DNA of 64,000 nucleotides, taken from Leptonemataceae bacterium (GTDB taxonomy: Bacteria; Spirochaetota; Leptospiria; Leptospirales; Leptonemataceae). The notes below the pieces were generated by a model, which worked only from the letters and a program-made list of their open reading frames with translations, had not been told where the DNA came from and did no database searches. Position 1 is the first letter of the stretch, and each line of letters starts with the position of its first letter. This document shows positions 59,263 through 61,884 of this stretch, piece after piece. The DNA is taken from the NCBI GenBank assembly GCA_965227295.1, contig OZ245742.1, positions 3,680,001 to 3,744,000 of the forward strand, in the 5' to 3' direction. A program made the position numbers and the translations under genes.

Positions 59263-59375
59263 ACTGTTAGCGGCCGCCGGTTAAAGAAATGCCACGGCGG
59301 CCGCCTTTGTTCTGATCCTCGTTCTGACGCCATTGGTCTTCGGCCGGCACAGTACGTAGGGAATGTGAGATCCTG

Positions 59376-59400
59376 GGGGGCAGCGATGCCCCCTTTTTTT
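59376..59400 (+). terminator. Intrinsic terminator downstream of fliF
   Basis: gggggca-gcga-tgccccc-ttttttt; an additional 10-bp hairpin lies at 59270-59304. Confidence 0.85.
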
Positions 59401-59429
59401 CGTTGGGCGTCTTTGCGATCATACGAGTC

Positions 59430-60749
59430 ATGAACGTCCAGGAACAAATTCAGTTCGCCCGTTTCTTCGTAATCGAAGCGGCCGCAGAGATCGGAGCCGA
59501 CGTTCTGGCTTATCTGAATCGGGACGAAACCAAAGATCTAAAGCGTTGGTTGATGGATCGAACTCCGCCTTATCCGGAATTCAGGGAAGGTCTGCTCATC
59601 TGGTGGAACAAAGTGGCGCTGGAGGAATCGAACGCGATCGATCTTACCGCCGCGCTCGATCCGGAACTTCGACGGCGATTGTTTCCAGACACAAAGCCTG
59701 CGCTGCGCGAGCGACGAGACGATGGTCTCGCCGAACTCGGCCCATTGATTCAACAGCGTAACGCTCATCATCCCGGCGAACCAATTGAGGAACTGAGCGT
59801 CGACGAACGTGCGCGGCGGGAAATGTTTGAAAACTTTCTAGCGGCGTTTGTAGAGCAATCGGGGGCGGCGCTGGAACGTCTCGATCGGGCCGCGGCCGCG
59901 ATGAGCGCGGAATACCTGGAGAGGCAGGAGCGTCGCTTGCCCGCGCAGGACCTGCGCCTGGAGTTCTTGCGGGGAGTGGCCGCGCGTCTGGGCGTGGAGC
60001 AGACCGAACAACAGCGAAGTTTTGTTCGGGGATTGCATGATCGTGAAGTGCGACTTGTATTCGCGTACTTGAACCATTGCGATATCAGGCCAGCATCCAG
60101 GGGACTCTTGCGTTCCGGCGAGCGAAGCAAGGATGCCGTCCAAAGATTGCGCCGGGTGTATCGTCGCCTGTTCGCGGGGAGGCGCGCTTGCAGGCCGGTG
60201 CGGGAATGGGAGATAGGTTCGGAAGATGAGTATCGGCCGCTTGCGTTTGGCACGGGTAAGGACGGTGCTTTATACACGCTGGAAATTTTGCATGATGATC
60301 GGGCTGCTGTGAAGGGTATGATCGAGCGTTTGTCGCCCGATGGTGAGCGGGTCAGGGTTGTGCATATCGCCGGGACAGCGGAGAGGTATGCACAGGACTT
60401 ACGGGTTACGGAAGACGCCCTTCATATTCTATTTGGCCCGCGCGGATATCTGGATCACGGTGATGACGATGCGGAACCGGTATACTCGATCGCGCGACTG
60501 AGTCATGATGGCTCCTTCCTGGATGAGAAAATCCTTTCGGAGGATGAGAACATTCACTCTGGCATGGATCGGCTTGTGCCGGATGAGCTACAGTTTTATC
60601 GATCGTTCACGCCAATGCCCGAGCACTTGCATCGCCTGATGTTTCGCGACACCGACGGGCGCCGATTTAGCTTTGAGCGTTTTGTTGTGCGGGGCGATTT
60701 TCTGGCGGCAAGAATCGGCGGACGCATCCTGATCTACGCCCTGAAGTGA
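59430..60749 (+). CDS. Hypothetical protein with a FliF C-terminal-like motif and a weak FliG_N-like N-terminus
   Basis: ELSVDERARREMFEN versus FliF [15 protein letters not shown]; 439-aa ORF. Confidence 0.7.
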   Translation: MNVQEQIQFARFFVIEAAAEIGADVLAYLNRDETKDLKRWLMDRTPPYPEFREGLLIWWNKVALEESNAIDLTAALDPELRRRLFPDTKPALRERRDDGLAELGPLIQQRNAHHPGEPIEELSVDERARREMFENFLAAFVEQSGAALERLDRAAAAMSAEYLERQERRLPAQDLRLEFLRGVAARLGVEQTEQQRSFVRGLHDREVRLVFAYLNHCDIRPASRGLLRSGERSKDAVQRLRRVYRRLFAGRRACRPVREWEIGSEDEYRPLAFGTGKDGALYTLEILHDDRAAVKGMIERLSPDGERVRVVHIAGTAERYAQDLRVTEDALHILFGPRGYLDHGDDDAEPVYSIARLSHDGSFLDEKILSEDENIHSGMDRLVPDELQFYRSFTPMPEHLHRLMFRDTDGRRFSFERFVVRGDFLAARIGGRILIYALK

Positions 60750-60757
60750 TGTATGCG

Positions 60758-61225
60758 TCATATCTCTTCCGGTTCCATGTACTCCGCATACGCATGCAGT
60801 CGATCTTCCAGCGGCCCCAGCAAATGCCGCCGCGCGTCTTCGATTTCTTCCGCGGTCCATTCGTTATCGCCGGCGTTCTGGATCTCATCGCGTTTGTTCA
60901 TCGATACGTTGCGCAGGATGATCTCACGTAGTTCCGGTGCCGCACCGAAACACGCCGCCGCGATTGTTCGGCCGTCCAGAGGGCGTAACAAATCCTGCAA
61001 TGTTCGTGCGTGAAGTTTTTGCAAGGCCGCAAAGGGTAAGCGAAAGAAAGTTAGCGATTTTGCGAGCGGCGCCGCGCTTTCCAGGAGACCCGCGAATTCC
61101 CGGGCGAGTTCCGGAGACAGCCGGCGCATTACATCATGGAGCACATCCGCCGCGGGTCGCGGGGAGGGCGGCTCGCCGAGATTTAACAGGGCTTCGATTT
61201 CTTCGGGGGAGAGGAATTCGGTCAC
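60758..61225 (-). CDS. FliM-type N-terminal peptide fused to a FliG C-terminal-like domain
   Basis: MTEFLSPEEIEALL; FAALQKLHARTLQDLLRPLDGRTIAAACFGAAPELREIILRNVS...EEIEDARRHLL. Confidence 0.72.
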   Translation of the reverse strand: MTEFLSPEEIEALLNLGEPPSPRPAADVLHDVMRRLSPELAREFAGLLESAAPLAKSLTFFRLPFAALQKLHARTLQDLLRPLDGRTIAAACFGAAPELREIILRNVSMNKRDEIQNAGDNEWTAEEIEDARRHLLGPLEDRLHAYAEYMEPEEI

Positions 61226-61689
61226 GTATCACGTTTCCGCTGAATTTCCTGAAGCACGGCCACGTCCCACTGGTCGATCTCGCGCGATGTGGACTTGCTG
61301 CGAATCAAAGAGGCGATTCCCATGTACGGAATCATTACACCGTCGACTTCCTTTACAGCGCGATCCGCAAGTGCTTCTTCGTAGGTGACGTCCCATGCGC
61401 TGATCGCAACATCCACTTCAATTTCATCTGCGATCTTCAGGACAATGTGCTCTACGATGTCCTGCGCCAGGATCGGCTCCGGCAATTCCGGGAAAAGCTT
61501 TTCGAGCGCGGCCACCGTGCGCTTTAGATTTTCCGGGGTGTTTCGAATGAGAATATCGTAATCGTTCGTGGCCCGGACGTGGCCCTGGAGAGCGCAGGCA
61601 TAGGCGCCGGTGAACATATACTCTACTTCGTGGCTATTGAAAACAGTGGCCACGTCCGAGAGTGTGCGCCACGGATCATTCGGCGCCAT
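61222..61689 (-). CDS. Minimal nucleotidyltransferase (DUF6036-like)
   Basis: EYMFTGAYACALQGHVRATNDYDI...SLIRSKSTSREIDQWD. Confidence 0.82.
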   Translation of the reverse strand: MAPNDPWRTLSDVATVFNSHEVEYMFTGAYACALQGHVRATNDYDILIRNTPENLKRTVAALEKLFPELPEPILAQDIVEHIVLKIADEIEVDVAISAWDVTYEEALADRAVKEVDGVMIPYMGIASLIRSKSTSREIDQWDVAVLQEIQRKRDT

Positions 61690-61695
61690 GACGCC

Positions 61696-61884
61696 TCACA
61701 ACTCCCGGGCCGCGCGGGTGCGGACGAATTCGTCGTGTTCTTCCCAGGTGCGGAACTTGTAGACTCCGCGCGGCTTTTTGTACGGGCGGAGCCGTTCCAT
61801 CTCGGCGACCAAACGATGCATGCGCCGGTAGTTTTCGATGACGTTGTTTGGATCGGGGGCGTTGGGACCTGTAATCCGCTTCAC
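61696..61884 (-). CDS. Small partner protein upstream of the nucleotidyltransferase
   Basis: 62 aa with PRGVYKFRTWEE motif; co-oriented, 6-nt gap. Confidence 0.65.
   Translation of the reverse strand: MKRITGPNAPDPNNVIENYRRMHRLVAEMERLRPYKKPRGVYKFRTWEEHDEFVRTRAAREL

Follow-up and report, generated by a model that had tools for sequence, protein, structure and literature searches.

The DNA analyzed in the current study is a stretch of 64,000 nucleotides (the window; G000:C1:3680001-3744000) from the genome of a Leptonemataceae bacterium, which is assembled in a single contig of 5.94 Mb. Within this window, the flagellar genes flgB, flgC, fliE and fliF are followed by two convergent genes, orf439 on the plus strand and orf155 on the minus strand, a convergent arrangement already reported in a preliminary description of the locus; 8 nt separate their stop codons. 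The product of orf155 joins a FliM-type N-terminal peptide to the C-terminal region of FliG, and orf439 is an orphan open reading frame (ORF) with a short motif resembling the tail of FliF. Both genes lie in the gap between fliF and fliG, which is here an 8-kb mosaic of acquired genes with atypical codon usage (Table 1). Two hairpins directly 3' of fliF agree with the strong terminator described there before. The first (59270-59304) has a 10-bp, all-G/C stem, and the second (59375-59394) an 8-bp stem followed by T7. The minimum free energy of this region is -59.4 kcal/mol (z -2.79; equal folding in 3 of 200 shuffles), and terminators and promoters in the island were assigned by consensus matches alone.

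The presence of FliM-N and FliG-C segments in orf155, as first proposed, is well supported. Its product scores 34.0 bits with the Pfam family FliG_C (PF01706; cut-off 23.3) and starts with MTEFLSPEEIEALL, while the FliM of the same genome begins with MTEILSQDEIDALL. The pattern LS.[ED]EI[DES][AGS]LL, typical of the EIDAL docking peptide, occurs at four sites in a six-frame scan of the genome, every one at the N-terminus of an ORF: in FliM, in two FliMN_C (FliN/FliY-type) proteins of 358 and 197 aa, and in orf155. FliG_C was likewise matched four times in the genome, by three FliG-sized frames and by orf155. A profile of the orf155 family searched against the PDB retrieved FliG (4fhr_B, 6.8e-26) over profile positions 25-148, i.e., ARM-C plus the C-terminal bundle, and its positions 1-16 matched the crystallized FliM peptide 4iga_B (E 0.11). 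Neither FliG_N nor FliG_M was found in orf155 by Pfam, which matched PF01706 only, and the full-length FliG model TIGR00207 gave only 17.1 bits, its cut-off being 226.7. PF02154 and PF01052 were not matched at E <= 1, and no PilZ or glycosyltransferase domain was found by Pfam in orf155 or orf439. We consider orf155 a genuine gene, and its product is neither a FliG nor a FliM, the defining domains of both being absent on testing.

The predicted structure points to the same assignment. An AlphaFold2 model built from a seven-sequence family alignment (A2) reached a mean predicted local distance difference test score (pLDDT) of 75, with about 90 at residues 61-145, and the ten best Foldseek matches to this model were all FliG. 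Superposition with VIA gave a Z of 13.0 on 3ajc (rmsd, the root mean square deviation, 2.0; 85 residues aligned), a Z of 12.7 on 4fhr_B (124 aligned, model residues 23-146 onto chain residues 195-321), and, for the bundle, a Z of 11.8 on the MotAB-bound FliG-C of 8ucs_H (rmsd 2.5, 83 aligned). Helical bundles may attain a Z of 13 from their arrangement alone; the assignment of a FliG-like fold nevertheless holds because the sequence profile independently agrees.

Compared with known switch proteins, orf155 is thus similar to the C-terminal region of FliG (PF01706; 4FHR, 1LKV, 3AJC, 8UCS) in fold and, over about 125 residues, in sequence, and shares with it the motifs L.DR..Q.LLR.VD and N(L/M)S. 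Unlike FliG, it has no FliG_N and FliG_M, and hence neither the link to FliF nor the EHPQR surface. The peptide sits at the extreme N-terminus, as it does in FliM, but is joined to a FliG-type domain and not to the FliM middle domain or the SpoA domain that it accompanies in FliM, FliN and FliY. The FliY of Bacillus and epsilonproteobacteria offers a precedent for the reuse of EIDAL on different switch proteins (PMC12826062, PMC6946799). FliY, however, forms part of the C-ring structure and contains CheC-like and SpoA domains, neither of which is present in orf155. Short proteins annotated by PF01706 alone are also on record (PMC13066512), and their Atlas cosine to orf155 of 0.82 is a lead only; HMMER recovered none of them at E <= 0.001. 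The individual parts (FliG_C, EIDAL and the FliF tail) are all known, and the combination of EIDAL, ARM-C and bundle in a protein of 150-180 aa is not described in the papers returned by our search.

Relatives of orf155 are few and widely scattered. A word-index search returned one (P0003, 124 aa, 72% identity), and HMMER over 1.84 billion representative proteins returned nine proteins at E <= 0.001, seven of them short (124-178 aa, orf155 included) and two FliG-sized. Six of the seven short proteins (orf155 and five of its six relatives) carry ExLSxEEI[DE][AG]LL at the extreme N-terminus, with overall identities of 33-72%. When the profile of alignment A2 was run against a database of 5.8 billion proteins, only two further weak matches appeared, neither of them convincing. 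Among 401 Spirochaetota genomes, 394 gave matches, and all of those listed from outside the present genome were FliG-sized frames; no relatives were found in JGI metagenome and viral contigs, and orf155 was not found in either congener. One relative belongs to another genus of the Leptonemataceae (G034; 33% identity over orf155 residues 3-154), and others come from a metagenome-assembled genome (MAG) of Candidatus Lindowbacteria and from Tara (marine) and other metagenomes. In a tree of 28 rows (L040, L042, L028, L030, L031 and most of the orthologous FliGs of the relatives were left out, being redundant by eye), the six proteins with the peptide fall into one clade (support 100/99), set off by long branches from all FliGs, including the three FliG paralogues of the genome. 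P0009, which has no peptide, stays unplaced on a long branch. Descent of orf155 from the neighboring fliG was considered and rejected, with 26% identity over 84 residues and the family in a separate clade. Since relatives in other phyla have the same architecture, orf155 is taken to be a maintained gene rather than a fragment. Judged by sequence, the small EIDAL-FliG_C proteins (124-178 aa) are a maintained cross-phylum gene family, not fragments or debris.

A separate feature was seen in G034, where two ORFs 1.2 kb apart (L026:1-279 and L026:1480-2106) have nearly the same first 33 residues (MQPRIL.(M/I)LECAAASAAQTKLRAT.GAQLRLKT...). One of the two precedes what is likely to be the true start of the orf155 homologue. 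The shared stretch probably represents intergenic DNA that is repeated and has been translated as if coding.

For orf439, the claim of a FliF-C-like motif is confirmed. The motif ELSVDERARREMFENFL is identical to the FliF of the genome at 13 of 17 residues (pairwise E 2e-4), its sole similarity to FliF in BLASTP, and at 11-14 of 17 residues to 17 FliFs. A hidden Markov model (HMM) made from the last 75 residues of these 17 FliFs was run on 66,835 six-frame ORFs (>=50 aa) of the genome and ranked FliF first (6.1e-40), a 99-aa ORF second (8.7e-9) and orf439 third (0.004), with the next at 0.39. Of the roughly 75 model positions, only 37-53 are aligned to orf439, and the residues past the motif differ. 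Because the FliF peptide crystallized in the FliF-C:FliG-N complex (5tdy_A) aligns to the segment of this FliF that ends in ...RTWL, the motif corresponds to the first half, i.e., the first helix, of the FliG-N-binding segment. The part that binds FliG-N in known complexes (5TDY, 5WUJ) is therefore represented by its start; in contrast to FliF, orf439 matches over 17 residues only and has no second helix, no YscJ_FliF domains of the MS ring and no transmembrane helix beside the motif.

The motif and fliF have diverged much further as DNA. Identity is 34/51 to the fliF of the genome and 27-38/51 to 17 fliF genes; at third codon positions, the matches are 8/17 and 3-10/17, respectively, and a serine codon has changed from TCC to AGC. 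A recent DNA duplication of the 3' end of fliF was thus rejected as the source, and the peptide may either have been kept by selection or have come from a distant fliF. The remainder of orf439 resembles nothing in the collections searched. A word-index search returned only orf439 itself among 8,000 scored candidates, Atlas gave no usable match, and a six-frame search of 156 genomes of the order gave just a 51-residue match to the FliF tail of G011 (E 0.006). Pfam had no match better than E 0.12, and there was none in NCBIfam, PADLOC or PDB sequences. A single-sequence AlphaFold2 model reached a pLDDT of 36.6, i.e., no confident fold. A weak binding of orf439 to FliG-N is possible, not probable; otherwise, it may be unrelated to the motor.

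Table 1. Features of the window around the fliF-fliG gap (positions counted from the first nucleotide of the window).
Feature	Position	Strand	Basis or remark
flgB	55904-56395		expected Pfam domain found
flgC	56413-56874		expected Pfam domain found
fliE	56949-57317		expected Pfam domain found
fliF, 567 aa, last conserved gene ahead of the insertion	57559..59262	+	PF01514 (YscJ_FliF) 8.8e-44, PF08345 (YscJ_FliF_C) 1e-16
Two terminator-like hairpins 3' of fliF	59270..59401	+	consensus and folding matches alone
orf439, orphan ORF, 439 aa	59430..60749	+	448 aa if translation begins at the TTG at 59403
FliF-tail-like motif in orf439	59790..59840	+	BLASTP, HMM
orf155, 155-aa chimera of FliM-N-type peptide, FliG ARM-C and C-terminal bundle	60758..61225	-	Pfam FliG_C 3.9e-8
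FliG-like region, orf155 residues 23-146, FliG ARM-C (D4) and C-terminal bundle (D5)	60788..61159	-	profile, alignment, structure superposition
LSPEEIEALL, EIDAL-type docking peptide, orf155 residues 5-14	61184..61213	-	
nt155, 155-aa minimal nucleotidyltransferase-like ORF	61222..61689	-	sole Pfam match weak: Aminoglyc_resit E 0.03
sm62, 62-aa ORF, first gene of the minus-strand unit	61696..61884	-	
Sigma-70-like site TTGACA-N16-TCTGAT just upstream of sm62	61891..61918	-	consensus scan match alone; -35 hexamer perfect
First exon of a gene split by the intron and paralogous to a pentapeptide-repeat membrane protein of 488 aa	62136..62428	+	tblastn 68% identity to paralogue residues 49-150
Group II intron	62428..64427, leaving the window at 64000; reverse transcriptase ORF from 63013	+	Rfam RF02005 130.7 bits

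The only stand-alone FliG_C gene of the genome, its only EIDAL peptide outside C-ring proteins and its third-best FliF-tail match lie within 2 kb in the gap between fliF and fliG, which is hard to credit to chance alone. CheY docks on the EIDAL motif at the N-terminus of FliM, and EIDAL occurs sporadically in FliN and FliY, as stated in one report (PMC6946799). Based on the architecture of orf155, we tentatively favor the reading that it is an accessory modulator of chemotactic switching that docks phosphorylated CheY (CheY-P), or a sink for it, a plausible reading that we still regard as short of probable. In this scheme, orf155 would dock CheY-P via its N-terminal EIDAL-type peptide and could then act as a cytoplasmic sink, a soluble bearer of the peptide competing for CheY-P. 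Alternatively, it could be an adaptor or ring modulator that carries CheY-P to FliG ARM-M or FliM-M in the rotor. What the data show directly is the anatomy of the locus, the domain homology, the conservation of the family, the foreign codon usage and the variable spacer; docking of CheY-P, an influence on the motor and a partnership of orf439 with orf155 are inferred.

As a functional analogy for orf155, brakes and clutches such as YcgR, EpsE and MotI are likewise small and accessory, and alter rotation through FliG or MotA (PMC10140304, PMC3000366). They differ from orf155, which has no PilZ or glycosyltransferase domain and no link to cyclic di-GMP; their evolutionary origin is another one, and they are not built of switch parts. 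The protein encoded by orf155 is a natural one built from the interfaces of the switch itself, whereas the known regulators YcgR, EpsE and MotI bind the switch but are unrelated to it. If orf155 binds CheY-P, it would provide a compact natural tool to probe what CheY-P does when attached to a FliG-type domain away from the ring, and would represent a novel route by which accessory DNA adjusts chemotaxis. Its general importance is limited by the extreme rarity of the family (7 short proteins of 1.84 billion), the degenerate charges of the torque helix and the intact fliG of the genome.

Several observations weigh against a CheY-P-docking role of orf155 and against a dedicated flagellar module. 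The peptide LSPEEIEALL has P in the place of the Q of FliM and E in the place of its D, and residues 1-60 of the model have a pLDDT of just 50-65. EIDAL peptides are also reported to bind FlhG, so the ligand need not be CheY. The Gly-Gly linker and the GPVR turn of FliG are gone in all members of the family. In orf155, N, N and A stand where FliG has the Arg and the two acidic residues of the torque helix, and a gap falls at GPVR. The gene is coupled here to a toxin-antitoxin-like pair and not to che or fla genes, and the readable contexts of two other family members are non-flagellar: among 18 ORFs scanned within +/-10 kb in G034, the orf155 homologue alone matches a flagellar family, and 4.7 kb of the Lindowbacteria contig, read by eye, contain no flagellar or chemotaxis gene nearby. 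The spacer between fliF and fliG is loaded with unrelated cargo in other Leptospirales, and the location beside these genes may be due to chance. As for orf439, no homologue of it turned up in any search, its E value across the genome is just 0.004, and the second FliF helix, which bears the conserved LLRTWL, is missing from it. It also has no promoter or Shine-Dalgarno match, its ATG lying 29 nt past the T-run of the terminator, behind two hairpins.

The torque-helix residues were compared in a MAFFT alignment of the orf155 family with five FliG C-halves; we take the positions in question to be R281, D288, D289 and R297 of E. coli. Four other members of the family keep the Arg and one acidic residue. 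The torque helix of FliG D5 is the contact with MotA/B (PMC11087270). Since its charges are lost in orf155, canonical stator engagement and a simple role as a stator decoy are unlikely, and the latter, as originally suggested for orf155, is weakened. This loss fits a role away from the stator, and the gene product might act as a rotor or assembly modulator independently of CheY, with its ARM-C and bundle stacking on FliG ARM-M or FliM-M, where they would displace the C-terminal domain of a neighboring subunit, to cap or loosen the FliG ring, and its EIDAL peptide recruiting FlhG, so that it would bear on how many flagella are formed or where. Both profile and model do span ARM-C as well as the bundle (residues 23-146 to FliG 195-321), and domain-swapped FliG-FliG contacts are described for the C ring of Salmonella in the same study (PMC11087270). 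On the other hand, the ARM-C part of the model is middling (pLDDT 60-65). We consider this alternative unlikely, and CheY-P docking by orf155 stays the reading that we tentatively favor.

Taken together, the two motifs could also represent paired decoys, as the preliminary description proposed, in which orf439 would mimic FliF-C on FliG-N, and orf155 would mimic FliG-C on the stator and soak up CheY-P, acting as a brake or clutch. The two motifs are real and correspond to the appropriate interfaces, the genes are adjacent and convergent, and the bundle of orf155 superposes on the MotAB-bound FliG-C of 8ucs_H. Against this stand the stator-contact charges, which are not conserved in orf155, and the fact that orf439, for which there are no relatives, contains just half of the peptide that binds FliG-N. 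The genes also occupy opposite strands in separate transcription units, and no relative of orf155 was seen with an orf439-like neighbor, the 156 genomes of the order having given one FliF-tail match only. A decoy pair is therefore very doubtful.

Further along the same line, orf439 and orf155 might form a mobile module of stolen switch parts that tampers with the motor, a highly speculative and very improbable view. The FliF-tail helix of orf439 would seize the FliG-N of unassembled or exchanging rotor subunits, and orf155 would read CheY-P by its FliM peptide and sit in the rotor by its FliG-like domain. If this were true, an accessory element with a toxin-antitoxin-like cassette, among defense-type genes, would stop or re-bias swimming on demand.

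With regard to the surroundings, the island does not take the place of fliG. The earlier statement that no full-length fliG follows fliF is correct inside the window only. Reading on beyond it, an intact fliG of 338 aa is located at window-equivalent positions 67290-68306, starting 8,027 bp past the stop codon of fliF (FliG_N 3.5e-49, FliG_M 1.2e-37, FliG_C 4.8e-50), the nearest FliG-sized frame being about 4 kb beyond the window end. Because this full-length fliG is intact downstream, orf439 and orf155 sit within an insertion in the spacer and do not replace it; the apparent absence of fliG was an artefact of the window edge. The FliF identity to 16 Leptospirales loci is 43-79% (56-79% to Leptospirales and Leptonemataceae MAGs, 43% to Leptospira biflexa). 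In 13 of these 16 loci, fliG follows fliF at about 20-1,120 bp, and in one the contig stops 371 bp after fliF. The exceptions carry unrelated ORFs after fliF, at least 3.3 kb of them in L018 and at least 1.9 kb in L019, with no fliG up to the contig ends, and a 1.1-kb fliF-fliG gap of the congener L009 also holds an unrelated ORF, encoded on the minus strand (183 aa, L009:11881-12432) and acetyltransferase-like by eye. By eye, L018:11151-14305 contains a 244-aa dehydrogenase-like ORF and others, and L019:6236-8175 contains ORFs of 439 and 181 aa. None of the proteins of the present island was found in the fliF loci of the 16 relatives. DNA similarity to the congeners ends at the stop codon of fliF and returns at the start of fliG. 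Since unrelated cargo occupies the spacer in other Leptospirales and the congener similarity breaks at these two points, the fliF-fliG spacer is a recurrent insertion site in the Leptospirales, holding 8 kb here.

The codon usage of the island differs from that of its surroundings. The GC content at third codon positions (GC3) is low in orf439 (0.605), orf155 (0.628), nt155 (0.654), the reverse transcriptase (RT; 0.594) and the peptidase (0.623), as compared with flgB (0.787), flgC (0.799), fliE (0.764), fliF (0.731) and fliG (0.794); it is not low in sm62 (0.762) and in the ORF after the intron (0.706). For orf439 and orf155, the annotated frame has the highest coding score (0.122 and 0.183, with -0.08 and -0.30 for the next-best frames), below the range of the core genes (0.30-0.56). 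The end at 61884 that was first given to the feature cut its context short, as orf155 belongs to a three-gene minus-strand unit and the island continues for 5.4 kb beyond this point.

In this unit (61884 down to 60758), sm62, nt155 and orf155 are tightly packed, with orf155 third and last. The TGA stop of nt155 overlaps the GTG start of orf155 (GTGA), and the stop of sm62 lies 7 nt ahead of the ATG of nt155. Neither nt155 nor sm62 matched NCBIfam or PADLOC, the weak Aminoglyc_resit match (E 0.03) being the sole Pfam match for nt155, and PADLOC gave no defense match for orf439, orf155, nt155 or sm62. A second copy of sm62, 82% identical, was found at genome positions 2657033-2657218; in that region (G000:C1:2656885-2657371, minus strand), it is followed by an nt155-like gene of which just the 25 C-terminal residues are left, and no orf155-like gene adjoins. 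The pairing and the degraded second copy suggest that sm62 and nt155 form a cassette, a candidate toxin-antitoxin-like pair.

Further into the island, the reading of 62428..64427 as a group II intron is supported both by its ribozyme domains (RF02005, 130.7 bits) and by an RT/maturase ORF (RVT_1 7.7e-33, GIIM 4.9e-7), and four copies, 99.8% identical over 2.0 kb, are present in the genome (positions 3742428, 5030305, 34343 and 4555354). The other three copies have ...TGTGGCCACAA... in common upstream of the insertion site, which the copy in the island does not have. Exon 2 of the split pentapeptide-repeat paralogue is located beyond the window (64426-64872), and a 715-aa ORF of the island has a trypsin-like region (Trypsin_2 27.4 bits, just below the cut-off of 27.6 bits).

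Such a setting is also consistent with orf155 and orf439 being incidental cargo, i.e., with a permissive spacer in which orf155 rides with the toxin-antitoxin-like cassette and any function of it is unconnected with its neighbors, orf439 is foreign or decaying, and the 17-residue motif is a relic or due to chance. The unrelated ORFs in the same spacer of L009, L018 and L019 speak for this, as do the mosaic nature of the island (the four-copy group II intron, the split membrane-protein paralogue, the trypsin-like ORF and a PDC-S11 candidate after fliG), the orphan status of orf439 and its missing expression signals, and the two relatives of orf155 whose readable context is away from flagellar genes. 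However, the third-best FliF-tail match among 66,835 ORFs lies just 168 bp downstream of fliF, and the gene adjoining orf439 is the only stand-alone FliG_C gene and the only EIDAL carrier outside the C ring. The motif of orf439 is retained at the protein level (13/17) though its synonymous sites have diverged, which is not the pattern of an unselected relic, and the orf155 family retains its peptide across phyla. We regard incidental cargo as somewhat unlikely, albeit a serious contender, and continue to lean, tentatively, toward a CheY-P-docking accessory protein.

The DNA around fliG varies on its other side as well. The gene directly 3' of fliG (L008:11597-12679, plus strand; window-equivalent 68597-69679) matches the PADLOC candidate defense system PDC-S11 (5.8e-122) and has a NucS_C-like region, and the 3' end of fliG shares 53 nt with a 94-aa ORF (L008:11254-11538). 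In the congener L010, about 1 kb past fliG, there is a homologue of a gene sited 6 kb further on here; because the gene order after fliG differs in L010, fliG has variable DNA on both flanks.

The genome has three fliG and three fliM paralogues, and such paralogues are located at G000:C1 positions 4367770-4368783, 2412165-2413151, 4065632-4066657, 4067357-4068379 and 679474-680343. One of the FliM paralogues has a canonical EIDAL N-terminus, a second has a degenerate one (MTEIISREELENLL), and the third has none. Next after the third fliM comes an ORF of 410 aa, part of which weakly resembles FliG_M (32% over 77 residues). The 99-aa ORF that ranked second in the FliF-tail search lies outside the window (G000:C1:2591689-2591988, plus strand; L054:1501-1800) and comprises one hydrophobic helix and a FliF-like cytoplasmic tail, which is 35% identical to FliF residues 470-562; it has no Pfam match, and it looks like a putative stand-alone 'mini FliF-C'. 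An order-wide search with this ORF returned nearly exclusively ordinary FliF tails, with a second match of 47% in G017 and two matches in each of 10 other genomes.

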